A DNA stretch of 64,000 nt from an uncultured Clostridia bacterium (GCA_937899435.1 CALBQG010000027.1:4139-68138), one strand, 5' to 3'. Shown: positions 3,870 to 63,716, numbered from the stretch's first letter. Numbers and translations: made by a program. The notes: generated from the letters alone by a model not told the origin.

Positions 3870-5599
3870 AACTGTCAAGCTATCTCAAACCCTACTGGCT
3901 CTGTGCGCTGCTGTCTCCGTTGGTAATGGCGGGAGAGGTGCTGTGCGACCTGGCACTTCCCGATCTGATGTCCACCATCGTGGATGAGGGCGTGCTCGGG
4001 CAGAACATGAGCGTGATTCTCCGCACCGGACTTCTGATGCTGGCGACCGCGCTGGTGGGCGCACTGGCGGGAATGCTGTCGTCGGTTTTTGCGGGAATTG
4101 CCTCGCAGAACTTCGGAACGGATCTGCGAAACGACGTGTTCCGCCGCGTGATGAGCCTTTCGCTGGAACAAACGGACAAGTTTACCACGGGATCGTTGGT
4201 CACGCGTCTGACCAATGATATTTCCATGGTGCAGAACGCCGTGCAGATGATTTTGCGGATGGTCATTCGCGCTCCTGTGTTTTTTGTCGGCGGCTTTATC
4301 ATGGCACTGACCCTGAATGTCAATTTCGGCACCGTGCTGCTCTGCGGACTTCCGGTGCAGCTGATTCTGATCACCGTGGTGCTGAAAAAAGCATCGCCGC
4401 TGTTTTTGCAGGTGCAGGAAAAGCTGGATCGCGTCAACTCGGTGGTGCAGGAAAACGTCACCGGCGCACGGACGGTGAAAGCCTACGTGCGTGAGGATTA
4501 CGAGGAGAAGCGCTTTCAGGATGCCAATGACGAGCTGATCCGCGTGAACTATCAGGTACAGCGGCTGATGGCAATCGCCATGCCGCTGATGATGATTGTG
4601 ATGAACGTCGTCGTGGTCGTGATTATTTTTGTCGGCGGATTGCAGGCAGAGGCACAGGCAATGAAGCCCGGCGATATTATGGCGGCAATCACGTATGTGA
4701 CGCAGATTCTGATGTCGATTATGATGGTATCGGGCATTTTCCAGATGCTGTCGCGCGCTTCGGCGTCGGCAGACCGTATCCGTGAAATTCTGGAAACCGA
4801 ACCGACCGTGGTCGGCGGGAGCTTTGAAGGCGCCCGTCGTCCGGGAGACGTGAAATTTGAAAATGTCAGCTTCCGCTACCCGAACGCTTCGGAGGATTTG
4901 GTGCTGAAAAATGTGAATTTTGAAGTGAAACCCGGAGAGACCGTCGCTATTATCGGCGCGACCGGTTCGGGAAAAACTTCTTTGGTCAATCTGATTGACC
5001 GCTTTTATGATGTCACCGACGGACACGTTCTGTTGGACGGCAAAGACGTGCGGGAATATGATCTGGAAGCATTGCGCGGGAGAATCGGTTTTGTGCTTCA
5101 GAAAAGCGAGCTGTTCTCGGGCACGATCGAGGACAATATCCGCTGGGGAAATCCGCAGGCGACGGAGGAAGAGGTGGTGAAAGCCGCAAAAATCGCCCAG
5201 GCGGACGAGTACATACAAGGCTTCAAGGACGGCTATCAGACCGTGATCGGCGAGAAGGGCGCATCCCTTTCGGGCGGACAGAAACAGCGCTTGTCCATTG
5301 CCCGTGCCATTGCGAAAAAACCGGATGTGCTGATTTTTGACGACAGCACTTCCGCACTGGATTTCAGCACGGAAGCGCGCCTGCATCGGGCATTGCGCGA
5401 AAATCTTTCGGAAACGACGGTGATCGTCATTGCCCAGCGTGTGGCAAGCATCATGCACGCCGACCGGATTCTGGTGCTGGACAACAACACCGTGGCGGCA
5501 AGCGGCACGCATGAGGAGCTGCTGAAAACCAGTCCGGTGTACCGCGATATTTATCAGTCTCAAATGAAAGCGGGGGATCACGATGGTACAGCAGAATAA
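3860..5599 (+). CDS. ABC exporter, fused permease/ATPase (subunit 1 of a probable heterodimer)
   Basis: Six-TM N-terminal half, Walker A GATGSGKTS, signature LSGGQKQR, Walker B LIFDDSTSALD. Confidence 0.9.
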   Translation: MRVKLSSYLKPYWLCALLSPLVMAGEVLCDLALPDLMSTIVDEGVLGQNMSVILRTGLLMLATALVGALAGMLSSVFAGIASQNFGTDLRNDVFRRVMSLSLEQTDKFTTGSLVTRLTNDISMVQNAVQMILRMVIRAPVFFVGGFIMALTLNVNFGTVLLCGLPVQLILITVVLKKASPLFLQVQEKLDRVNSVVQENVTGARTVKAYVREDYEEKRFQDANDELIRVNYQVQRLMAIAMPLMMIVMNVVVVVIIFVGGLQAEAQAMKPGDIMAAITYVTQILMSIMMVSGIFQMLSRASASADRIREILETEPTVVGGSFEGARRPGDVKFENVSFRYPNASEDLVLKNVNFEVKPGETVAIIGATGSGKTSLVNLIDRFYDVTDGHVLLDGKDVREYDLEALRGRIGFVLQKSELFSGTIEDNIRWGNPQATEEEVVKAAKIAQADEYIQGFKDGYQTVIGEKGASLSGGQKQRLSIARAIAKKPDVLIFDDSTSALDFSTEARLHRALRENLSETTVIVIAQRVASIMHADRILVLDNNTVAASGTHEELLKTSPVYRDIYQSQMKAGDHDGTAE

Positions 5600-7448
5600 T
5601 CAGAATCGCCCGCAGGTGAACCTTCGTCCGGGACGCGGACCCGGCGGACCGCACGGTCCGATTATGCGGGAAAAGCCGAAAAATTTCAAAAAAACCTTCG
5701 GACGGCTGCTTCGGTATATTGCGTCGGGAAAATACATCTTTTTCGCGTTGGTCATTATTCTGGTGATTATCACGGGACTGTCGCTGGCAGCGCCGTTGCT
5801 TCAGGCGGACGCGATCGATATGATCCGTTACGACAATGCCACCGGTCAGATCAGCGTGGATCATCAAGGACTTTTGCGGATGCTGGCGCTGCTTCTCGGA
5901 GTGTATCTGCTGTCGGCAGTGATGACCTATCTGCAAAACATTTTTTCGGCAAAGTTGTCGCTTTCCACCGTCAAAAAGCTGCGCAACGACCTGTTTCACA
6001 GCATTGAACATCTGCCGATCCGCTATATTGACACGCATCAGCACGGCGACCTGATGAGCCGCATGACCAACGATGTGGAAAATATTTCCAATACGATTTC
6101 TCAGTCGGTTGCCTCTCTGTTTTCGGGAATCATCACACTGGTGGGAACCTTGGTCATCATGCTGGTCAAAAGTCCGCTTCTGACCTTGGTCAGCCTGCTG
6201 ACCGTACCGCTCACACTGTTTGTGTCCATGAAAATGGCGGGCTTTATGCGCAAATTCTTTCTGAAACAGCAGTCCACATTGGGCGCGCTTAACGGAAATA
6301 TTGAAGAAAAAATCACAGGTTATAAAACTGTGGTGGCGTTCGGAAAAGAAAAGGATGCCGTGCGGGAGTTCGGCGAGCTGAACGGCGAACTGAAAACCAT
6401 CGGCATCAAGGCGCAGGTGTTCGGCGGTCTGATGGGACCGATCATGAACGTCATCGGCAACCTCGGCTATCTGATCGTCGCGGCGACGGGCGGCTGGCTG
6501 GCACTCAATGGAGACACCATCGGCGCGGCAATTTCCGTGGGAACGATTCAGGCGTTTTTGCTGTATATTAAGCAATTCAACCGCCCGATCAATGAAATCG
6601 CCAACCAGTACGCTAATATCATGACCGCTATTGCCGGTGCGGAACGTGTGTTTGATGTCATGGACACCAAACCGGAAGACGAGGGCGGAAAGGTGCCGCT
6701 CGGCGATGTACGCGGAGATATCTGTTTTGAGGATGTGTATTTTGCCTATAATCCCGAAGAACCCGTGCTTCAGGGACTGAATCTGAAAGTAAAGGCAGGA
6801 CAGAAAATCGCCGTCGTAGGAGCGACGGGTTCGGGCAAAACCACCATCGTCAACCTGCTGACCCGATTCTATGATACCGATCGCGGTCGGATTACGGTGG
6901 ACGGCAAGGATATCCGCGAAGTGCCGAAAGAGGAACTGCGGCACAACATCGCGATTGTGCTGCAGGATACGGTACTGCTGTCGGACACCATTGCTACCAA
7001 TATCCGTTACGGCAAACTGGACGCCACGGATGAACAGGTGAGAAAAGCGGCTCAGACGGCAGAAGCGGACAGCTTCATCGACAAGCTGCGGGATGGCTAT
7101 GACACCGTGCTGACCGGTTCGGGTTCGGCGCTGTCGGGCGGACAGCGGCAGCTGTTGGCAATTGCCCGTGCCGTGCTTGCCGACCCGAAGATTCTGATTT
7201 TGGATGAGGCGACCTCTTCGGTGGACACCCGAACGGAAATGAACATCCAGACCGCGATGGCAAAGCTGATGGAAAACCGCACCAGTCTCATCATCGCACA
7301 CCGCCTGTCCACTATCCGCGACGCGGATATGATCGCGGTTATTGCCGACGGAAAAGTGGCGGAAGCGGGCAATCACGAAGAACTTCTGGCAAAAAAAGGA
7401 CATTATTATACACTGTATCAGAACCAATTTGCAGGACTCAGAACGTAA
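5583..7448 (+). CDS. ABC exporter, fused permease/ATPase (subunit 2)
   Basis: Overlaps the upstream gene by 17 nt. Walker A GATGSGKTT, signature LSGGQRQ, Walker B ILILDEATSSVD. Confidence 0.9.
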   Translation: MVQQNNQNRPQVNLRPGRGPGGPHGPIMREKPKNFKKTFGRLLRYIASGKYIFFALVIILVIITGLSLAAPLLQADAIDMIRYDNATGQISVDHQGLLRMLALLLGVYLLSAVMTYLQNIFSAKLSLSTVKKLRNDLFHSIEHLPIRYIDTHQHGDLMSRMTNDVENISNTISQSVASLFSGIITLVGTLVIMLVKSPLLTLVSLLTVPLTLFVSMKMAGFMRKFFLKQQSTLGALNGNIEEKITGYKTVVAFGKEKDAVREFGELNGELKTIGIKAQVFGGLMGPIMNVIGNLGYLIVAATGGWLALNGDTIGAAISVGTIQAFLLYIKQFNRPINEIANQYANIMTAIAGAERVFDVMDTKPEDEGGKVPLGDVRGDICFEDVYFAYNPEEPVLQGLNLKVKAGQKIAVVGATGSGKTTIVNLLTRFYDTDRGRITVDGKDIREVPKEELRHNIAIVLQDTVLLSDTIATNIRYGKLDATDEQVRKAAQTAEADSFIDKLRDGYDTVLTGSGSALSGGQRQLLAIARAVLADPKILILDEATSSVDTRTEMNIQTAMAKLMENRTSLIIAHRLSTIRDADMIAVIADGKVAEAGNHEELLAKKGHYYTLYQNQFAGLRT

Positions 7449-8227: not shown

Positions 8228-9057
8228 TCGCCGCTTCTTTCACGCCGCGCGACTTTTCGGAAGTCGCGCGGCGTGACGCCGTATTTGCGGCGGAAAAGAC
8301 GGGAAAAATAGTTCGGGTCGTCAAAGGAACACGCTGCGGCAATTTTTCGGATTCCGTCCCCCGTGCTGCGCAGCAGCTGCGCGGCGTGCGAAAGGCGCAG
8401 GTCGCGAAGGTGCTCGGTGACCGTCATGCCGACGTCGGCACGGAATTTGCGGCAGAAAGCCGCTTCGGTGTAGCCGAACGTCTGCGCAAGTCCGCGGCAG
8501 GTCAGCGGCTGCGAAAGGTTTTCTTCCATATACAGGAGGATCCGCTGCGAAAATTCGTCGTCGGTCAGCACGGGAAAACGGTTTTCGGGCGCGTCGGCAT
8601 ACCGCGACATCAGCGTGCCGATCAGCAGATAGAGAAACCCCGTCACGGTCTGCACGTTGGAATCAGGACTTCTGAACGCTTCGGAAAGATGATCCAACAG
8701 GGAAGCAAGCCCGGGATCACGAATGCAGTGACGCAATTGAGACAATTGCTGAAAGGAGAAACCGAACAGATCGGTGTCGAACATGAATACGCGGTAGGAA
8801 ACGCCTTCGTCGCCCGCAGTGCCTTCGTGACAACAACGCGGAGGAAAAACCACGGTGTCGCCGTTTTCGGCGGCATAGGAAATGCCGTCCACAACAAAAT
8901 TCATGCTTCCGCGGTCGATCCGCAGAATCTCCATGCGTTCGTGCCAGTGATTGTGAAAACAGGGGCGGTTTGCCTCGGGCGAAAAGGACAAAATCCGCAG
9001 TCCTTTTTTTCCGTAAATCACGGGAGTGAGCTCTTTTAAATAGTACGCCTGTGCCAT
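8224..9057 (-). CDS. AraC family transcriptional regulator (cupin sensor plus HTH)
   Basis: N-terminal cupin-like half and C-terminal AraC double HTH (FGYTEAAFCRKFRADVGMTVTEHL ... DPNYFSRLFRRKYGVTPRDF). I chose the ATG at 9057 because GAGGG lies 5 nt upstream. The tracked ORF extends to 9075. Confidence 0.85.
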   Translation of the reverse strand: MAQAYYLKELTPVIYGKKGLRILSFSPEANRPCFHNHWHERMEILRIDRGSMNFVVDGISYAAENGDTVVFPPRCCHEGTAGDEGVSYRVFMFDTDLFGFSFQQLSQLRHCIRDPGLASLLDHLSEAFRSPDSNVQTVTGFLYLLIGTLMSRYADAPENRFPVLTDDEFSQRILLYMEENLSQPLTCRGLAQTFGYTEAAFCRKFRADVGMTVTEHLRDLRLSHAAQLLRSTGDGIRKIAAACSFDDPNYFSRLFRRKYGVTPRDFRKVARRERSGD

Positions 9058-9152
9058 AGTACCCTCACAAGACAAAAATGTGCGAAAATATGTTAAAATC
9101 GTGCTATTTCATTATACAGCATCTGTTATAATAAAGTCAAGAGGTGAGGCAA

Positions 9153-9995
9153 ATGAAGATTGGCACTTGTGTCCATTTGAAGGAAATTTCCGAAATGGAA
9201 AAAGTCTTTGCCACCATGCAGAAACAGGGCTTTGACAACTGTCAGCTGATCTGCTGGGAACTTTCCCGCTATACCCGGGAAACGGCACAGGCAATTCTGA
9301 AACTGACAAAAACCTACGGTGTGGAAATCTCGGCGGTCTGGTGCGGCTGGAGCGGTCCGGCAAAGTGGAACTTTTACGAAGGTCCGCTGACACTGGGGCT
9401 GGTTCCGTCGGCGTACCGCGAACAGCGTGTGCGCGACCTTTGCAGAGGAAGCGATTTTGCGCGGATGCTCGGTGTGGATCGCGTGGTATCGCATATGGGC
9501 TTCATTCCCGAAGATCCCAATGATGCCCAATTCAAACCGTTCTGCGAAGCGGTGAAAAAGGTTGCCGACCACGCGAAAGAAAACGGACAGTATCTGATGT
9601 TTGAAACGGGACAGGAAACCCCCGTGACGATGCTGCGCTGTTTTGAAACGGCAGGCTGCGATAACCTGCGGGTGAACCTCGATACGGCAAACGTGATTCT
9701 GTACGGCAAAGCCAATCCCGCGGATGCGCTGGATGTGTTCGGAAAATGGGTGGCAGGCGTACATATGAAGGACGGCTTGTATCCGACCAACGGACACGAC
9801 CTCGGTCATGAGGTGCGCATCGGGGACGGAAAGTGCGATTTCGGAAAAGTGCTGCGCAAACTCAAGGCTCTCGGTTACAACGAACCGCTGACAATTGAAC
9901 GTGAAATCGGCGGCGAACAGCAAAATGTCGATATCCTGTATGCACGGGATTATCTGCAAAAAATTCTGAATGAAATGGCGGAGGAAGAAAAATGA
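9153..9995 (+). CDS. Sugar phosphate isomerase/epimerase (xylose isomerase-like TIM barrel)
   Basis: TIM-barrel family pattern (MFETGQE, NLDTANV, HMKD, IERE metal ligand contexts). The ATG at 9153 follows AGAGGTGAGG. Confidence 0.75.
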   Translation: MKIGTCVHLKEISEMEKVFATMQKQGFDNCQLICWELSRYTRETAQAILKLTKTYGVEISAVWCGWSGPAKWNFYEGPLTLGLVPSAYREQRVRDLCRGSDFARMLGVDRVVSHMGFIPEDPNDAQFKPFCEAVKKVADHAKENGQYLMFETGQETPVTMLRCFETAGCDNLRVNLDTANVILYGKANPADALDVFGKWVAGVHMKDGLYPTNGHDLGHEVRIGDGKCDFGKVLRKLKALGYNEPLTIEREIGGEQQNVDILYARDYLQKILNEMAEEEK

Positions 9996-13541: not shown

Positions 13542-13559
13542 CAAGAAAATTCAATATTG

Positions 13560-13790
13560 ATTTGGTAGAGGCGCGAACTTGTATGAGTCGTATGACGGAG
13601 ACAGCCAAAGGTCGAAGAGGTCATATCAAAGGACGGTTCGCCGAAATTGGAATTGAGTTGGAGCAATTCCCGTTGGACGTTCGGAGAAAATCCGCTCGGC
13701 TGTCACATTTGTGGAGTGCTATCATCGTTTGCTTGCTTTGCGTAAGAATGAACGGTCGGGTTTAGTACTTCGACCGTTTTTTTATTTTTA
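13560..13790 (+). promoter_or_regulatory. Lysine riboswitch (L-box) with terminator expression platform
   Basis: The leader carries the L-box core elements GGTAGAGGCGCGAAC, GAGTCGTA, TTCGCCGAA, TGGAGCA, GGCTGTCA and the closing GGAGTGCTATC. These run in the same order as the B. subtilis lysC leader as I recall it. A hairpin aacggtcg..cgaccgtt plus T-run follows at 13751-13789. Confidence 0.75.
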
Positions 13791-57950: not shown

Positions 57951-58388
57951 ATGAGAGAGTTTGTAATCCCTATCAAAGTACATGACGCGGAGCTTCCCGT
58001 CCCTGAACACAAGTCGTGGGGCGACTGGGTTGACCTGCGAGCTGCCGAGACAGTTGAGATGAAGCAGGGCGAGTTCCGTATCATTTCACTCGGCGTAAGC
58101 ATGAGACTCCCGAACGGCTACGAGGCTAACGTCGTTCCGAGAAGCTCGACCTTCAAGAACTTCGGAGTTCTGATGGCAAATAGTTTCGGAGTAATTGACA
58201 ACAACTACTGCGGCAATGACGATGTGTGGGGCTTCCCTGCGATTGCGATGAGAGACACCGTAATCAATAAGGGCGACCGTATCGCACAGTTCCGTATCGT
58301 ACAACGTCAGCCGAAGCTGGTTTTCGCGAAGGTCGATGACCTGAACAGCAAAAACAGAGGCGGTTTCGGTTCTACCGGCATTAAGTGA
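57951..58388 (+). CDS. dut: dUTP diphosphatase
   Basis: GVIDNNYCG, DRIAQ and a C-terminal RGGFGSTG. The ATG at 57951 follows GAGGAGG. The tracked ORF begins upstream at 57738. Confidence 0.88.
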   Translation: MREFVIPIKVHDAELPVPEHKSWGDWVDLRAAETVEMKQGEFRIISLGVSMRLPNGYEANVVPRSSTFKNFGVLMANSFGVIDNNYCGNDDVWGFPAIAMRDTVINKGDRIAQFRIVQRQPKLVFAKVDDLNSKNRGGFGSTGIK

Positions 58389-58399
58389 GGAGGACGAAC

Positions 58400-58687
58400 G
58401 TGAACGAAATCAAACGAGTACCCGAAAAAGTCAGCGGTGTGAAGGACGGCGTACAGCTCGATGCCAAATGCGTCCACACACGGTTCTTCAAGGACAGGAT
58501 GAAGCAAACGACCGCGCCATGCACTTTGATGGCAAGCTGGGAAAACGGTGTTCTGTCAATCAACTTCACAGTCGAAGGAAAGCGTCAGTCGGTCGGTGTA
58601 AGGCTTGATGAAACGATTATGCTCTTGCAGGAGGCAAACGCCGCCAGAATTGAAGCCGAGGAGCGCGGCAAGGTTGCGGAACAGTAA
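58400..58687 (+). CDS. Hypothetical protein in the antitoxin position upstream of mazF
   Basis: The GTG at 58400 follows GAGGAGG. There is no recognisable AbrB/MazE fold. At most, a weak beta-strand/helix (RHH-like) segment KRQSVGVRLDETIMLLQEANAA lies at the C-terminus. Confidence 0.45.
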   Translation: MNEIKRVPEKVSGVKDGVQLDAKCVHTRFFKDRMKQTTAPCTLMASWENGVLSINFTVEGKRQSVGVRLDETIMLLQEANAARIEAEERGKVAEQ

Positions 58688-59036
58688 TCTCCAACCGCGA
58701 CGGGGCGATATTTTCTTCGCTGACCTCAGCGATGCCGGAAACGGCTCCAAGAGAGGGTATCGTCCCGTCATAATCCTCCAGAACAACAAGGGCAACGCGA
58801 ACAGCGGCAGCGTAATCGTTGCGACCATCACAAGCGTCACAAAAAGACCGCTCCCCACACACGTCCGGCTCGGACAACAGCACGGCTTGAAAAAGCCCAG
58901 CACGGCGGTCTTGGAGGACATCCTTACAATCGACAAAAGGTATCTGTCGAACTATCTCGGAACGGTAATCAATACCGATGCCGAGAAGCAGCTCGATAAG
59001 GCGATATGCGTAAGTTTAGGTCTCAGAACACCATAA
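58674..59036 (+). CDS. mazF: MazF/PemK family endoribonuclease toxin
   Basis: RRGDIFFADLS ... GYRPVIILQNN.GN ... VIVATITS ... LPTHV ... VLEDILTIDK is collinear with B. subtilis MazF (NdoA). A TTG start at 58674 is proposed. The tracked ORF begins at 58605. Confidence 0.8.
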   Translation: MRNSNLQPRRGDIFFADLSDAGNGSKRGYRPVIILQNNKGNANSGSVIVATITSVTKRPLPTHVRLGQQHGLKKPSTAVLEDILTIDKRYLSNYLGTVINTDAEKQLDKAICVSLGLRTP

Positions 59037-59134: not shown

Positions 59135-59701
59135 ATGGCTAAAAGCGAAAACTCAGAGAGCGCGACCATAACGGGCGCACAACTCAAAAAAATCACAGAG
59201 ACGGCTTCTCTGGTAGCGATAGAAGCGTATCGGAAAGAAGTCGAGAGGGAGAGAGTGGAGAACCGCGACAAGCGGCTCTACAATACCCGGCTCCTTATGG
59301 AAAAGTATCGCGGCATGGTGAAATACGCCGAAGATGCCGTATATGAGGCGCGTCAGCTCGACGATGATTTTGAACTGCAAGCACTCGTCGAAATGATGAG
59401 TACGGGCAAAGACAGCTATTCACTGTCAGTCGAGTCTATTCAGGAGCGTGTAGGCAAGGTCAGAGTCATCCTCGACCACGTTACGAAAATGTTGGACTTC
59501 TACCATCATCGCTGCGAAATGTCCGGCAAACAGGAAATCATGCGGAAGTGGGACACAATCCGCTATCTGTACCTCGACGAGGATGAAAAGACCGTACAAG
59601 ACCTCGCGGAGATGTACTATGTGGACGAGCGGACTGTCTACAGGTACAATCGCGCCGCGTTGCAGGACCTCAGCGCGTTGTTCTTCGGTTGGGTAGATTA
59701 A
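59135..59701 (+). CDS. Putative phage late-gene transcriptional regulator (sigma-70 region-4-like HTH, ArpU/RinA-like position)
   Basis: C-terminal TVQDLAEMYYVDERTVYRYNRAALQDL resembles a region 4.2 HTH. It sits at the early/late boundary. Confidence 0.4.
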   Translation: MAKSENSESATITGAQLKKITETASLVAIEAYRKEVERERVENRDKRLYNTRLLMEKYRGMVKYAEDAVYEARQLDDDFELQALVEMMSTGKDSYSLSVESIQERVGKVRVILDHVTKMLDFYHHRCEMSGKQEIMRKWDTIRYLYLDEDEKTVQDLAEMYYVDERTVYRYNRAALQDLSALFFGWVD

Positions 59702-59743: not shown

Positions 59744-60487
59744 TCAGATGAGCTTCGGGCAGTCTGCCTTGACCGGACACTGTTCGCAGTCCGGCGAGAG
59801 CGGATGACAATATTCTCTGCCTATCCTCCAGCAAGCGGCATCAATAATACCCGGAAACTCAGGATTCAGCTCCCGCGCTTTATAGATGATTTCATCCCGC
59901 GACGCTCCTCCCTCGACCAGCCCCGTCCTCTGGAAGATGCGGAATACATGAACGTCAGGAGATACGTCTATCGAGTAGTAGTCGGAGAACGGTACGCCAA
60001 ACTGACGCGAAAGTATGTTCGCCGCCATATTCGCAATCTTCACTCCAACCCCGTCAAACTCAAGGAAACGAAATACGACGGCTGCGCTGCTCGGACTGTT
60101 AGCCCAAATTCGAGAAGCGTCGCCGTCGTACTTGTTCTTTATGCGAAGAACTGCCTTGTAGAAAATCTCAGCCATCGTGTCGTTGTATCGGTGAAGTGTC
60201 TGCTCGGTGAATATTCGCCTGTATTCCTCTAAAGGAACCGATGCCAGCTCGTCAATCGAGAACTCTCTGTAGAGGTTCCGGATGACGCAGGGGATTCGCC
60301 ATGCCCTGTCGGATGCTATCTGCCTGTCCATACAACACGCGAGGACGAAGGCGTGTGGATAGTTGTCAAGGTCGGTGAGAAGCGCGTTCTCGGCGGTGTT
60401 TTCGAGGAAGCGAACCTCAGATATGGAAAGCTCCTCGTTGACTTTGCGGCTGTATTCGACCAGCCAATGTGCGGTTTTCATTTTCAA
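59744..60487 (-). CDS. Endonuclease III-like HhH-GPD superfamily protein with a 4Fe-4S cluster loop
   Basis: HhH element FDGVGVKIANMAANIL, catalytic-Asp context SPDVHVFRIFQRTGL, and an exact C-X6-C-X2-C-X5-C motif (CHPLSPDCEQCPVKADC). It is on the opposite strand to all neighbouring phage genes. Confidence 0.75.
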   Translation of the reverse strand: MKMKTAHWLVEYSRKVNEELSISEVRFLENTAENALLTDLDNYPHAFVLACCMDRQIASDRAWRIPCVIRNLYREFSIDELASVPLEEYRRIFTEQTLHRYNDTMAEIFYKAVLRIKNKYDGDASRIWANSPSSAAVVFRFLEFDGVGVKIANMAANILSRQFGVPFSDYYSIDVSPDVHVFRIFQRTGLVEGGASRDEIIYKARELNPEFPGIIDAACWRIGREYCHPLSPDCEQCPVKADCPKLI

Positions 60488-60604: not shown

Positions 60605-60634
60605 TTGACTTGTCAATATGGGCTGTGGTATAAT
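60605..60634 (+). promoter_or_regulatory. Promoter upstream of the ParB-like/DpdA-like operon
   Basis: TTGACT, an 18-nt spacer, then TATAAT with a TGn extension. Confidence 0.55.
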
Positions 60635-60660: not shown

Positions 60661-60695
60661 GGAGACGGATTTTTTGTCCGTCTCTTTTCTTTTTG
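60661..60695 (+). terminator. Intrinsic terminator located within the leader, about 25 nt downstream of the promoter
   Basis: Stem ggagacgga / tccgtctc(t), a 7-nt loop, then ttttctttttg. The U-run is present only in the plus orientation. Confidence 0.65.
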
Positions 60696-60754: not shown

Positions 60755-61234
60755 ATGATGGAAATTATCGCAATGCCAATCGGCGACATCGTTGCGTACA
60801 AGAACAATCCTCGTATCAACGACAAGGCGGTCGAGCCTGTAGCCGAGAGCATCAAGGAGTTCGGGTTCAAGGTTCCCATCCTGCTCGACAAAGACAACGT
60901 AATCATCGCCGGACACACGAGGCTGAAAGCCGCAAAGCAGCTTGGTATGAAGGAAGTCCCCTGCATCCGCTGCGAGGACCTGACCCCTGAACAGGTCAAG
61001 GCGTTCCGGCTCGCCGACAATAAGGTCGCGGAGTTCGCGGACTGGGACCTTGCAGCCCTGAACATCGAACTTGGCGACATACAGATGGACATGGAAAAGT
61101 TCGGTTTCTTCGAGCTTCCTGAAATCGACATTGACGACTACCTGAAAGATAAACAGGATAAGCCCGCCGATGAGGAAAAGGAACCGGAACGCATCCAGTG
61201 TCCACATTGCGGCGAATGGTTTGATTTGCCATGA
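60755..61234 (+). CDS. ParB N-terminal (ParB/Srx-like nuclease) domain protein with a C-terminal zinc ribbon
   Basis: DIVAYKNNPR ... VPILLDKDNVIIAGHTRLKAA ... the ParB-box pattern, and a C-terminal CPHCGEW. The ATG at 60755 was chosen, and the stop overlaps the next ATG (ATGA). Confidence 0.75.
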   Translation: MMEIIAMPIGDIVAYKNNPRINDKAVEPVAESIKEFGFKVPILLDKDNVIIAGHTRLKAAKQLGMKEVPCIRCEDLTPEQVKAFRLADNKVAEFADWDLAALNIELGDIQMDMEKFGFFELPEIDIDDYLKDKQDKPADEEKEPERIQCPHCGEWFDLP

Positions 61235-61986
61235 GGCTCTACCTCGCCGGAGTAGAACAGCGGACCGAGCAGTTCAAGGAGGCAAAACCTCCTTACATTC
61301 TGTTTTCCTTCGCAGCCTGTCAGGGAGGCGGCAAGAAGCAGGAAAAGATTATGGACTGCGTGAGAAGTCCGTGGTGTAAAGACTTCCTCTGCGACAGCGG
61401 AGCGTTCACCTTCTTCTCGAAGGGACACTCAAAAACGCTGGAGGAGTGGGACAGATACGTCGATGAGTATATCGACTTCATCAACACCTACGACGTTCAT
61501 CACTTCTTCGAGCTTGACATCGACCGGATAGTCGGGCTGGAGAAGGTCGAGGAGTTTCGCAGGAAAATCGAAAAGCGCACAGGAAAGCAAAGCATCCCAG
61601 TCTGGCACAGCAACCGAGGCTGGGCGTACTTTGAACGGATGTGCGCCGAATACAGCTACGTCTCTATCGGCGGTATCGCGAAGAACCCGAACGGCAAGGC
61701 GATTGAGAAAATCTTCCCGTGGTTCATCGAACACGCCCACAAGACCGGAACACAGATACACGGTCTGGGCTACACCGATACGAAGAAGCTGAAATTATAT
61801 CCGTTCGACTCCGTTGACTCCACCTCGTGGAGCAGCGGTTCTCGATATGGCGTGTCCTTCGAGTACAAGGGTCATGCGATGTGCGGAAAGAAGAACATCT
61901 ACCCCGACAAACGAATCGACGGACAGATGCTCGACATCCACAACCTGAAAGTATGGACTCAGTACGCGAAGTCACTCGACCACTAA
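61231..61986 (+). CDS. dpdA: DpdA-like TGT-superfamily transglycosylase (candidate DNA 7-deazaguanine inserting enzyme)
   Basis: Three TGT-family signature contexts in order: LCDSGAFTF (compare DSGGFQ), YVSIGGIA (compare AIGGL) and PFDSVDSTSW (compare FDCV / archaeal FDSASY). No C-terminal zinc motif. It is clustered with queC, a queF-like gene and yhhQ. Confidence 0.65.
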   Translation: MRLYLAGVEQRTEQFKEAKPPYILFSFAACQGGGKKQEKIMDCVRSPWCKDFLCDSGAFTFFSKGHSKTLEEWDRYVDEYIDFINTYDVHHFFELDIDRIVGLEKVEEFRRKIEKRTGKQSIPVWHSNRGWAYFERMCAEYSYVSIGGIAKNPNGKAIEKIFPWFIEHAHKTGTQIHGLGYTDTKKLKLYPFDSVDSTSWSSGSRYGVSFEYKGHAMCGKKNIYPDKRIDGQMLDIHNLKVWTQYAKSLDH

Positions 61987-62011: not shown

Positions 62012-62323
62012 ATGAGAACCTACTCCAATGATAAGGGCATCAGCCGAATGAAGTTCACTGCGCCCGCCACGGTGTTCTGCCCACTCGGACCGAACTACTA
62101 CAGGGCGATGGTGACTTGCGAGCTGGAGCTTGGCGAGAGAATCGTTGACTTCCTCGACCTTGAAGCCTATTTCAAAAGAGACCTCAATGGGAAGGAGCTT
62201 ACTACCGAGAACCTTTGTAACGAAGTGTTCCAAACGCTGAAAAACGTTTACGAGCCGAAACACATCAGGGTCACGGTAATGAGCGACAGCCATTTCCCGA
62301 TTGAGACAATCAAAGAAGCCTGA
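62012..62323 (+). CDS. QueF-like T-fold protein (single domain, divergent motif)
   Basis: Collinear with B. subtilis QueF around the catalytic Cys: VFCPLG vs SLCPKTG; IVDFLDLEAYFKR vs MVESKSLKLYLFSFR; ENLCNEVF vs EDCMNII; EPKHIRV vs DPRYIEV. The QPD and E-S-K-S-L-K residues are not conserved. Confidence 0.55.
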   Translation: MRTYSNDKGISRMKFTAPATVFCPLGPNYYRAMVTCELELGERIVDFLDLEAYFKRDLNGKELTTENLCNEVFQTLKNVYEPKHIRVTVMSDSHFPIETIKEA

Positions 62324-62353
62324 GAAAACCTCTTGAAAGGAGAAAACCTCACT

Positions 62354-63061
62354 ATGGAAAACAAAACCGCAGTCGTACTTCTCAGCGGAGGTATCGACAG
62401 CACGACCTGCCTTGCGTTGGCGGTTGACGAGTATGGCACAAACAATGTCGTCGCCCTCAATATGCTTTATGGGCAGAAACACGATAAGGAAATCGAGAGC
62501 GCAAAGGCGGTAGCCGCGTACTACGGTATTCCTTACTACGAGATGGACATGAGCTGTGTCATGGCATACAGCGACTGCCCGCTTCTAAAACATAGCCACA
62601 AAGAAATCAAGCACATGAGCTACGGCGAACAGCTCAAAGAACTCGGCGGCGAAGGGACTGTTGACACATACGTTCCTTTCCGCAACGGACTTTTCCTCTC
62701 TGCCGCCACCGCGTTTGCAATCAGCATGAACGCCCACTACGTCTATTATGGCGCACACGCCGACGACGCGGCTGGTCACGCCTATCCCGACTGCTCTATG
62801 GCATTCGCGGACTACATGAACAAAGCCATCAAGGAAGGCTCTGGCGGCACGGTGCAGCTCAAAGCACCGCTCATTGACCTGTCCAAGTCTGGCGTAGTGA
62901 GGCTGGGGCTTCAGTTGAAAGCTCCGTATCACCTCACATGGTCCTGCTACGAGGGCGGCGATAAGCCCTGCGGAAAATGCGGAACCTGCATTGACCGTGC
63001 AAAGGCGTTTGCCGCGAACGGAGTAGACGACCCCGCCGAGAGGAGGGACGACAATGAATAA
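62354..63061 (+). CDS. queC: 7-cyano-7-deazaguanine (preQ0) synthase
   Basis: PP-loop VVLLSGGIDSTT and C-terminal zinc motif C..(x)..CGKCGTC. The ATG at 62354 follows AAAGGAGAA. Confidence 0.9.
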   Translation: MENKTAVVLLSGGIDSTTCLALAVDEYGTNNVVALNMLYGQKHDKEIESAKAVAAYYGIPYYEMDMSCVMAYSDCPLLKHSHKEIKHMSYGEQLKELGGEGTVDTYVPFRNGLFLSAATAFAISMNAHYVYYGAHADDAAGHAYPDCSMAFADYMNKAIKEGSGGTVQLKAPLIDLSKSGVVRLGLQLKAPYHLTWSCYEGGDKPCGKCGTCIDRAKAFAANGVDDPAERRDDNE

Positions 63062-63716
63062 AAGAACTCCCTTGAAAAACGAACGCTACAGTTTCGTGCA
63101 GGTGCTTCTGACGGTCATTTCAGTCTCCTGTCTGCTCATCGCGAACGTCATCACATCGAAACAGGTGCAGTTCCCGTTTGGAATTACCATGACGGGGGCT
63201 GTTTTCATTTTCCCTGTGACCTACATTCTCAGCGATGTGTTCTCTGAGGTGTACGGCTACCGCTGGAGTCGCATTACCTGCTACATCGGCTTCGCGATGA
63301 ACGCTGTCATGGCGATTATGTTCGAGCTGGTCATCGCTACCCCTGCCCCGTCCTACTGGGGGAATCAGGAGGCGTTCGCCACCGTACTCGGAAACGCACC
63401 GAGAGTGTTGATTGCGTCCCTCGCGGCGTTCGTCATCGGCGACCTTGCGAACGACCTCGTGTTCCAGAAGATGAAGGAGAAACACAAGGACGAGATTAAA
63501 GGCTTCGGATGGAGAGCAATCATCTCCAGCTTCTTCGGCGAACTTGCCGACAGCCTCATCTTCATCCCCATCGCCTTCTTGGGGCAGCTCCCGTTCGAGA
63601 AGCTGGTTCAGATGCTCGTCGTTCAGGTACTGCTGAAAACCGCATACGAACTCGTCATCCTGCCTGTCACAACGCTCGTCGTAAAAGCGGTTGACCGCTA
63701 CGAGCGAGGTGTGTGA
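63054..63716 (+). CDS. yhhQ: Queuosine precursor transporter (YhhQ/DUF165 family)
   Basis: Polytopic membrane protein with ANVITSKQV ... FIFPVTYILSDVFSEVYGY and the family-typical C-terminal half. Overlaps queC by 8 nt. Confidence 0.8.
   Translation: MNKRTPLKNERYSFVQVLLTVISVSCLLIANVITSKQVQFPFGITMTGAVFIFPVTYILSDVFSEVYGYRWSRITCYIGFAMNAVMAIMFELVIATPAPSYWGNQEAFATVLGNAPRVLIASLAAFVIGDLANDLVFQKMKEKHKDEIKGFGWRAIISSFFGELADSLIFIPIAFLGQLPFEKLVQMLVVQVLLKTAYELVILPVTTLVVKAVDRYERGV

Follow-up and report, generated by a model that had tools for sequence, protein, structure and literature searches.

A ParB-like protein coupled to a minimal phage DpdA in a Clostridia prophage suggests a ParB-dependent subclass of phage DNA guanine transglycosylases

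In the bacterial dpd system, the nucleoside triphosphatase (NTPase) activity of DpdB is required for the insertion of preQ0 into double-stranded DNA (dsDNA) by the transglycosylase DpdA (PMC10164549). A comparable dependence is known for the thymine dioxygenase 5mYOX176, which needs a ParB-like activator (ParB176) without a DNA-binding domain, and needs it on dsDNA only (O'Toole et al., PNAS 2026, PMC13229309); the ParB-like activators associated with 5mYOX enzymes have a C-terminal dimerisation domain that is required for function (PMC13229309). In addition, ParB-CTPase (cytidine triphosphatase) folds fused to phage methyltransferases bind various nucleoside triphosphates (NTPs) (Kaljevic et al., PNAS 2025, PMC12704722), in a survey that covers fusions, not operon partners, and makes no mention of DpdA. 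Phage DpdA enzymes are treated in the literature as stand-alone, and Rosebush gp1 is not discussed there (PMC6884629, PMC10516641, PMC10484667). Several DpdAs (phiSM DpdA1, DpdA3, DpdA4) could not be reconstituted alone (PMC10516641). Here we report the analysis of a 64,000-nt stretch of DNA from an uncultured Clostridia bacterium (GCA_937899435.1 CALBQG010000027.1:4139-68138; hereafter, the window), where a prophage carries a gene for a protein consisting of a ParB N-terminal domain (ParB_N) and a short tail, whose stop codon overlaps the start codon of a minimal dpdA gene. An original prediction, made from the sequence alone, had pointed to this pair and had taken DpdB to be an ATPase of the ParB/DndB superfamily needed by bacterial DpdA, a view that proved correct (PMC10164549, PMC5699537).

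The reading that we favour, with moderate confidence, is that the ParB_N-only protein is a dedicated accessory factor through which DpdA becomes able to act on dsDNA, which would set apart a subclass of phage DpdAs that depend on ParB. In the searchable deazaguanine literature a ParB-type partner of the phage enzyme finds no mention, nor is DpdA mentioned in the paper on the ParB-dependent dioxygenases (PMC13229309), in which the idea that ParB directs DNA modification to specific loci is attributed to Iyer et al. 2013. That earlier work probably noted ParB near phage genes resembling tRNA-guanine transglycosylase (TGT) genes.

The ParB-like/dpdA gene pair

The ParB-like gene (159 aa) occupies positions 60755-61234 and the dpdA gene (251 aa) positions 61231-61986, both on the plus strand and both as predicted, and the ATGA in which the dpdA start meets the ParB-like stop was confirmed at 61231-61234 (+) by reading the sequence. 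The ParB-like frame opens with ATGATG, with a ribosome-binding site (GAAAGG) 8 nt upstream. An alternative TTG start at 60674 was rejected: it would fall inside the leader hairpin described below, and most homologues begin at MEII, so that 60755 is the better start. A programmed frameshift fusing both open reading frames (ORFs) was also discarded, since no slippery sequence is present at the overlap and coupling by termination and reinitiation is simpler.

Linkage of the two genes, whose co-occurrence in phage genomes had been put forward as a check, turned out to be near-universal. In a viral set made up of 72 IMG/VR loci plus the window and two further loci of our comparison (L001 and L002), and limited to loci with sufficient upstream DNA, a ParB_N ORF stands immediately 5′ of dpdA, on the same strand, in 74 of the 75 cases. 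An independent scan anchored on DpdA, with one genome per bacterial species, placed a ParB_N ORF directly 5′ of dpdA in 71 of 74 loci, the hosts belonging to Clostridia, Bacilli, Negativicutes, Bacteroidales, Saccharibacteria, Synergistaceae and Acidobacteria and including Staphylococcus and Veillonella. The overlapping pair is also present in Fusobacterium phage phiFN37, the human-gut scaffold MT835752, Arthrobacter phage Sonali and Mycobacterium phage Rosebush, and the 4-nt overlap recurs in these four as well as in at least 29 IMG/VR loci; in Mycobacterium phage Rinkes a single gene (QueF) lies between the ParB-like gene and dpdA. The paired DpdA proteins are highly divergent, with a BLASTP E value of only 0.003 between Rosebush gp2 and the window protein, and in the DNA of Rosebush ~28% of guanines are replaced by dPreQ0 (PMC6884629). 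These data indicate that the ParB_N-dpdA pairing is not due to chance, and that it is near-obligate and translationally coupled.

Two of these phages deserve a separate comment. Gene 2 of Rinkes (L083 1299-1691), annotated as 'GTP cyclohydrolase', has the QueF signature CPVTGQPD ... ESKSLKLYL and, judging from these motifs, probably encodes a preQ0 reductase. In phiFN37 (L001) three ParB-like genes were found, in the regions 772-2560, 5519-6004 and 8922-9410: one overlaps dpdA, one lies directly 3′ of a gene resembling PAPS (3′-phosphoadenosine 5′-phosphosulfate) reductase, in an IbrA/IbrB- or DndC-like pairing, and one precedes small hypothetical genes.

Family profiles and structural models identify the 251-aa protein as a minimal phage DpdA, that is, a member of the TGT superfamily of the DNA guanine transglycosylase type, whose kinship with bacterial DpdA and TGT is only remote, in line with the original prediction. 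The ORF matches phrog_887 'queuine tRNA-ribosyltransferase' (1.3e-50), and the family profile matches the DpdA proteins of BCD7 (3.5e-36), BcepGomr (5e-26), JenP1 of the phage 9g genus (1e-25), Sonali (8e-25), Rinkes (4e-20) and Rosebush (4e-9). Its AlphaFold2 model is a TIM barrel (mean pLDDT 91) with no zinc subdomain, which in a structure search of BFVD retrieved several phage DpdA subfamilies, including phiST DpdA3 (3.9e-5) and nt-1 DpdA2 (1.3e-4). Foldseek comparison of the model with the PDB returned generic TIM barrels without singling out TGT (mouse QTRT1, TMq 0.59), so membership rests on the phage DpdA profiles and the BFVD matches; the DpdA profile retrieved no TGT or DpdA among the PDB sequences. 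In PADLOC and NCBIfam, DpdA was the sole family matched (E ~0.01; 14.5 bits in NCBIfam against a cut-off of 200), and the Pfam scan of the 251-aa protein gave no match at E <= 0.01, TGT (PF01702) included. Precursor genes, for QueC and a YhhQ-type transporter, lie downstream of dpdA. Taking one representative per protein cluster, the family profile reached 7,161 clusters at E <= 0.001, a count that comprises the clade of the window DpdA plus remote relatives, and 605 at E <= 1e-30.

All three signature motifs that had been noted are present: DSGAF at aa 55-59 (61393-61407, +), SIGGIA at aa 145-150 and FDSVDS at aa 192-197 (61804-61821, +). Among 36 homologues with 41-85% identity, residues D55, S56, G57, F59, G147, G148, F192, D193, D196 and S197 are invariant. 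Four aspartates, D55, D96, D193 and D196, do not vary within the family, and only the D193/D196 region could be aligned to the bacterial model (E 0.011): positions 198-258 of the NCBIfam DpdA model, which contain the Asp256 nucleophile, align to aa 140-204 of the window protein. Either D193 or D196 is thus the candidate nucleophile, and D55 is a candidate general acid/base by analogy with Asp95 of bacterial DpdA (PMC10164549); D55 and D96 would correspond to Asp95 and Asp130 by motif analogy only. The TGT zinc motif is indeed missing, CxCxxC being present in none of eight sampled phage DpdAs; the explanation first given, that its absence is expected for DNA-directed DpdA enzymes, does not hold, as bacterial DpdA retains CXCX2CX22H (PMC10164549). 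We also considered, and rejected, that the CxxC tail of the partner replaces the zinc subdomain missing from DpdA, because the zinc motif is equally missing from ParB-independent phage DpdAs and the tails of many partners contain no cysteine. It has to be noted that some DpdA homologues (P0244, P0247, P0109, P0119; L014 539-1876) carry an N-terminal extension with 2-5 tandem copies of 'M.(I/V)YLAG', the motif of the first beta-strand of DpdA.

Regarding the partner, profile and model matches place it in the canonical ParB-CTPase branch, with the ParB N-terminal domain only. It matches Pfam ParB_N (PF02195; 30.5 bits against a cut-off of 26.3, E 3.8e-7) and phrog_620 'ParB-like partition protein' (3e-55), and its family profile retrieves ParB CTPase domains from the PDB (7bnk, 3e-8; 6sdk, 2e-6). 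The best Foldseek superposition of its AlphaFold2 model was on 6sdk_A (root-mean-square deviation 2.1 Å, 95 columns), and profile and model match the CTP-binding N-domain of ParB, Noc, KorB and PadC, the fold being that of ParB domains with bound CDP or CTP. Roughly the first 100 residues make up the ParB N-terminal domain with its CTPase fold; they are joined through a short linker, helical and acidic, to a CxxC knuckle at the C-terminus, and past residue 100 the model contains only short helices and a beta-hairpin. Three nucleotide-binding motifs can be recognised. The Box I-like N18-P19-R20 (60806-60814, +) aligns with QPR of Myxococcus xanthus ParB, and N18 is kept in 129 of 133 dpdA-linked ParB-like proteins; the Box II-like G53-H54-T55-R56 (60911-60922, +) aligns with the canonical GERR, G53 being present in 132 and R56 in 119 of these proteins, with H or N, not E, at position 54; and the Box III-like D88-N89-K90 (61016-61024, +) occupies the place of the canonical EN, with N89 in 130 and D88 in 92 of the 133. 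The C-terminal tail, 'QCPHCGEWFDLP', holds a single CxxC knuckle, C149-P-H-C152 (61199-61210, +; 'QCPHCGEWF'), which is invariant in 26 close homologues; what had been called a zinc ribbon is really this one knuckle (C149, C152) and not a four-cysteine ribbon.

Neither the Pfam search nor the model revealed a helix-turn-helix (HTH) DNA-binding domain or a canonical C-terminal dimerisation domain in the ParB-like protein, and no ParA gene was found among the annotated prophage genes. The protein is not a canonical partition ParB (ParABS), and the sliding clamp of ParB style that had been envisaged for it is unlikely as stated, given the absence of both domains. The lack of an HTH also bears on a different reading, in which ParB_N would be a targeting or timing regulator rather than an activator, restricting DpdA to certain sequences or loci or to phage DNA, or silencing it until late. 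In its targeting form this reading corresponds to the idea credited to Iyer et al. 2013 in PMC13229309. Canonical ParB loads at specific sites, and spreading from a pac- or parS-like site is conceivable; the phage DpdAs studied so far are sequence-selective and partial (28% of guanines in Rosebush, defined motifs in CAjan and iggy); the pair stands under a probable late promoter, behind a leader terminator; and both timing and site selection are considered possible in the 5mYOX study itself (PMC13229309). We nevertheless regard such a role as unlikely, since no HTH or comparable domain for reading sequence can be recognised in the ParB-like protein, enzymes of unrelated specificity are served by a near-identical N-domain, and ParB-less DpdAs are sequence-specific too.

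The same searches bear on the possibility that the ParB_N protein is a strongly reduced but true DpdB orthologue, an ATPase inherited together with DpdA from the dpd island. DpdB has a ParB-fold N-domain, adjoins bacterial dpdA and is required there, and the gene order in the phage echoes that arrangement. Against this, even with the threshold relaxed to E <= 1, no DpdB, DndB or DGQHR model was matched in PADLOC, NCBIfam or Pfam, and the best matches were ParB/Noc partition-type domains and the N-terminus of type II methyltransferases. The motif reads A-G-H-T-R instead of DGQ(H/Q)R (DGQQR), the 159-aa protein lacks the C-terminal helical domain of DpdB (~400 aa), the nearest relatives (55-70% identity) are modules fused to methyltransferases, and phage DpdA is itself very distant from bacterial DpdA and has no zinc site. 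This origin is therefore very improbable, orthology to DpdB being essentially excluded by the family searches, and the suggestion that the partner is the homologous phage counterpart of DpdB had to be abandoned on the same three grounds of motif, model match and helical domain.

The ParB_N module and its proposed role

The ParB_N module is not confined to dpdA. In a scan anchored on ParB, dpdA lies downstream of 27 of 29 short ParB_N proteins whose match reaches the CxxC tail, and N-domains 55-70% identical, without the CxxC tail, are fused to N6_N4_Mtase or to DUF4417, which may be another DNA-modifying enzyme. Other ParB_N genes stand directly 5′ of genes for an N6/N4 methylase, a class-I S-adenosylmethionine (SAM) methyltransferase, a Mom-family protein or TAGT, and a CxxC-tailed ParB_N protein in L110 is followed by a Dam gene. 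In gut-phage contigs (L117 3740-4603, L141 3738-4589, L109 3541-4242, L110 3474-4364, L103 2995-4017) the module occurs with TAGT (PF20691), Mom (PF25680) or Dam (PF02086), or as a DUF4417 fusion. Taken together, the fusions and operon pairs indicate that the module always accompanies a DNA-modifying enzyme. The PADLOC search aligned the ParB-like protein with the N-terminal region of a type II methyltransferase (MTase_II, 3.8e-26), so the original concern about a methyltransferase-associated family was justified as far as family origin goes; as an argument against the linkage to dpdA it fails, because the same module serves many DNA-modifying enzymes.

The tails of the dpdA-linked partners fall into three classes, namely a CxxC knuckle, a ~70-aa cysteine-free tail and a '...KLLGL' tail. 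The tail class follows the DpdA clade, whereas the N-domains do not co-diverge with DpdA, a pattern that we read as a generic, swappable DNA-handling N-domain joined to a tail that would be the enzyme-specific part.

The position of the pair within the operon raises another explanation, in which synteny would not reflect a shared function. The module order is ParB-like gene, dpdA, a 103-aa ORF, QueC and a YhhQ-type transporter gene, with terminase next in relatives: in L003, a close relative with an identical DpdA protein, a small membrane protein and then a terS-like gene come after the module, and in L002 and Rosebush the same module is placed directly 5′ of the terminase genes, from which it follows that the ParB-like/dpdA pair opens the late operon. 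ParB_N could belong to a terminase-side module (pac-site handling, nuclease or other role) located at a hot spot for the insertion of modification cargo. This would agree with the placement of the module immediately 5′ of terS/terL (L002, L003 and Rosebush), with the weak co-divergence of ParB_N and DpdA, with the different contexts of the three ParB-like genes of phiFN37 and with the few loci that hold dpdA without ParB. We consider it quite unlikely, however, as the ParB_N module of relatives is covalently fused to methyltransferases or DUF4417 and is gene-coupled with Mom, TAGT, Dam and DpdA, which argues that ParB_N travels with the modifying enzyme and not with terminase. Furthermore, the 4-nt overlap with dpdA is retained across phages of Actinobacteria, Fusobacteria, Firmicutes and Bacteroidota, and the tail class tracks the DpdA clade.

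DpdA genes without a ParB partner were found in the Queuovirinae-type phages JenP1 (L168), BcepGomr (L085), Me-ZS1 (L252) and two Vibrio phages (L249, L253), and also in BCD7, 7-11 and another gut scaffold. The Queuovirinae-type dpdA lies immediately 5′ of the genes for a beta-clamp-like processivity factor and DNA polymerase, a neighbourhood that may represent an alternative way of coupling this DpdA type to DNA. The 9g DpdA alone inserts preQ0 in Escherichia coli. The existence of ParB-less DpdAs and the autonomous activity of the 9g enzyme suggest that phage DpdA comprises two subclasses, ParB-dependent and ParB-independent, as is the case for thymine dioxygenases.

Several observations on ParB-less loci stand apart. 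In JenP1, an HNH-like gene of 162 aa overlaps the dpdA start. The ORFs found upstream of dpdA in the ParB-less loci of the bacterial scan encode QueF, a 76-aa cysteine-rich protein and an unrelated small product. The 76-aa protein (L194 2774-3004) overlaps the dpdA start, keeps the 'IDDFFE' motif of the acidic linker without any ParB_N, and could represent a relic of the partner or a minimal adaptor. In L014/L174 a classical QueF gene precedes a DpdA with N-terminal strand repeats.

With the pairing kept in about 96% of related phages and prophages, DpdA of the window type probably needs a ParB-type helper, in parallel with the 5mYOX enzymes and, as an analogy only, with bacterial DpdA/DpdB; we propose the following sequence of events. 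QueC, host enzymes and the YhhQ-type transporter would supply preQ0, and DpdA would exchange guanines of replicated phage dsDNA for a 7-deazaguanine base shortly before packaging. The partner would be made together with DpdA through translational coupling and would take no part in the catalysis of the exchange; it could keep DpdA on the DNA, or open or distort the duplex. Its ParB nucleotide-binding domain might work as a dimerising switch, possibly gated by NTP, and its short C-terminal tail as a DpdA-specific element for docking or dimerisation. Gene identities, operon layout, coupled pairing, conservation of the ParB motifs and sharing of the module with other enzymes were directly established. 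The accessory role is supported by three precedents: the bacterial DpdA/DpdB system, the 5mYOX176 activator and the NTP-binding ParB-methyltransferase fusions.

The physical interaction of ParB with DpdA, the activation of DpdA, the use of NTP and the nature of the inserted base are features that we infer. A number of points weigh against this accessory role. As to the nucleotide, mutations at the NTP site leave activation in place in the 5mYOX system (PMC13229309), the residues driving CTP hydrolysis in canonical ParB are substituted here (Q to N in Box I, E to H/N in Box II), and Rosebush-type partners lack the Box II arginine. As to the pairing, this DpdA occurs without an upstream ParB_N in three of the 74 genome loci, and no ParB-DpdA fusion protein was found among the 150 best DpdA cluster representatives, where the long matches correspond to N-terminal strand repeats or to read-through into YhhQ. 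Co-divergence of ParB_N and DpdA in a mirror-tree comparison was weak (Pearson 0.44, Spearman 0.11), which suggests module swapping rather than a maintained, co-evolved interface; with such a correlation the mirror-tree result was dropped as evidence of interaction. Finally, the sequence tie of the window enzyme to bacterial DpdA is weak (E ~0.01) and is accompanied by the lack of a Pfam TGT match.

A broader possibility, which we put forward only tentatively, is that the ParB_N-only proteins and the fused modules form one class of portable cofactors for enzymes that reach bases inside dsDNA. The clients of such a cofactor may be DpdA, N6/N4 and Dam methylases, Mom, TAGT, 5mYOX and CmoX. The CxxC tail would then be an intermolecular zinc hook or a docking peg, the N-domain would form an NTP-gated dimer closing round the DNA together with the enzyme, and hypermodification would be tied to the late, packaging stage of infection. 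A split into ParB-dependent and ParB-independent enzymes could in that case explain why some phage DpdAs fail alone in heterologous hosts.

Prophage setting, operon and promoter

Bacterial chromosome makes up the left part of the window, as deduced from a lysine riboswitch at 13558-13729 (+; Rfam RF00168, 95.7 bits), and the prophage extends from ~45.6 kb onward. Its genes include those for a serine integrase, a repressor, an exonuclease, RecT, a replication initiator, a DnaC-like loader and an HNH endonuclease, together with a dUTPase, a MazF-like toxin and a phrog_1558 regulator-like protein, with a HhH-GPD glycosylase-like gene on the opposite strand. The nearest genomic relative is a metagenome-assembled genome of Oscillospiraceae (90% identity), and the host of this integrated temperate phage is a member of the Clostridia, probably of the family Oscillospiraceae.

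Downstream of dpdA, the 103-aa ORF (62012-62323, +) belongs to a family recurrent in these clusters, with 29 homologues in related loci, some of them fused to the C-terminus of QueC. In L003 (5103-6164) QueC and a domain of this type form a single 353-aa protein; the QueC of the window, at 242 aa, lacks the fused domain, which implies an indel of ~330 nt. Comparison of the 103-aa ORF with QueF gave weak values (E 0.052 with NCBIfam QueF-II, 21% probability in hhalign), and its 'CP' cysteine and 'D..dLE.YF' align weakly with the catalytic Cys and the signature motif of QueF. On these alignments it is possibly a divergent QueF-like T-fold protein; reductase activity of this ORF would make preQ1 the base that is inserted. 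It is followed by the genes for QueC, the preQ0 synthase (62333-63061, +; Pfam QueC, 1e-58), and for a YhhQ/Vut_1-type transporter of queuosine precursors (63054-63716, +; Pfam Vut_1, 2e-43), whose phiFN37 counterpart is annotated as queuosine precursor transporter. The window phage encodes only QueC and the transporter, without FolE, QueD or QueE, and the loci of relatives carry QueC, QueD, QueE and FolE.

Upstream of the pair, a strong sigma-70-type promoter was identified at 60605-60634 (+). It reads TTGACT-18 nt-TATAAT, carries a TG extension, agrees with the consensus at 11 of 12 positions and is probably the late promoter of the modification operon. Upstream regions of the window, L003, L004, L005, L007 and L009 were compared: the hexamers are kept in L003, L004, L005 and L007, with the form TTGAC(T/C)-18 nt-TA(T/C)AAT in relatives. 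Between the promoter and the ParB-like start codon lies a terminator-like leader hairpin with a T-run (60661-60695, +), formed by a stem of 10 pairs followed by TTTCTTTTTG. The stems vary across relatives with pairing retained through compensatory changes (GGAGACGGA/TCCGTCTC, GCGGAAC/GTTCCGC, GGAGG/CCTCC), and a conserved box, ATATTACCG..CG.AAGA, is located 3′ of the hairpin. Judged by these elements, the region resembles a late promoter followed at short distance by a terminator, with control by antitermination. A riboswitch in the leader, for instance of the preQ1 type, was rejected, as no Rfam family matches.

The phrog_1558 protein encoded 5′ of the operon (59135-59701, +; 1.8e-42), with a C-terminal HTH/sigma-like region, would be a candidate late-gene regulator, and L002 has a comparable 187-aa ORF upstream of its ParB-like gene. 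A gene resembling HhH-GPD/FeS DNA glycosylases (59744-60487, -; NCBIfam TIGR03252, 3e-15) adjoins the modification operon upstream, and its position beside a base-exchange enzyme could link it to modified-base biology. Within the prophage there is also a MazF/PemK-like toxin gene (58605-59036, +; Pfam, 3e-21), overlapped from its 5′ side by a 100-aa ORF (58385-58687, +) that may encode the antitoxin.

Significance and comparison with known systems

Phage 7-deazaguanine modification has so far been described as needing only DpdA and the enzymes of precursor synthesis. The DpdA clade paired with ParB_N is large; its carriers include prophages of Veillonella and Staphylococcus, of gut Clostridia and of Bacteroidales, among other groups. 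Should the partner prove necessary, it would be, after DpdB, a second and independent ParB-fold protein enabling DNA transglycosylation, it would extend the ParB-activator principle of the thymine dioxygenases to a different enzyme chemistry, and it would offer a practical route to reconstitute such enzymes, for example in enzymatic 7-deazaguanine labelling of DNA. Since methylases, Mom, TAGT and DpdA share the N-domain, the long-open role of ParB domains in DNA modification becomes testable with a small two-gene system.

With canonical ParB proteins (Spo0J, Noc, KorB) the window protein shares the CTP-binding N-domain fold and the positions of Boxes I, II and III; unlike them, it has neither HTH nor C-terminal dimerisation domain, and it carries N and H/N where the catalytic Q and E would stand. 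The ParB-methyltransferase and DUF4417 fusions (PMC12704722) have an N-domain of the same subfamily (55-70% identity), in N-terminal position in related prophages. In the window, however, the module is a separate polypeptide, translationally coupled, and its enzyme is DpdA.

Queuovirinae DpdA1 (9g, CAjan, JenP1) and the Rosebush-type clusters resemble the window locus in enzyme family, motifs and preQ0 synthesis genes (PMC6884629, PMC10516641, PMC10484667). The difference lies in the neighbourhood of dpdA, which in Queuovirinae has no ParB gene and is followed downstream by a beta-clamp-like factor and polymerase, whereas in the window a ParB-like gene is located upstream. As for the dpd island of Salmonella Montevideo, in both systems the gene of a 7-deazaguanine DNA transglycosylase has a ParB-fold protein encoded beside it. 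DpdB, however, belongs to the DndB/DGQQR family and has ~400 aa and a helical C-terminal domain, while the window partner is a canonical ParB_N (GHTR) protein of 159 aa; bacterial DpdA has a zinc site and insertions, both lacking in the 251-aa phage enzyme; and the restriction part of the island, DpdC to DpdK, is absent from the window locus.

The system of 5mYOX176 and ParB176 differs in that the window enzyme is a base-swapping transglycosylase with a TIM barrel and not a dioxygenase, and in that its partner ends in a CxxC knuckle of ~12 aa (a 70-aa tail in other clades), where ParB176 has a C-terminal dimerisation domain. ParB dependence was experimentally shown for 5mYOX and is what we infer for the window DpdA. 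Both systems nevertheless place a ParB-like gene, with the nucleotide-binding domain kept and the DNA-binding domain absent, beside a post-replicative base-modifying enzyme, and in both the clusters are often near terminase genes. In the same manner as the 5mYOX enzymes are divided into ParB-dependent and ParB-independent subclasses, DpdA occurs in ParB-paired and ParB-less types.

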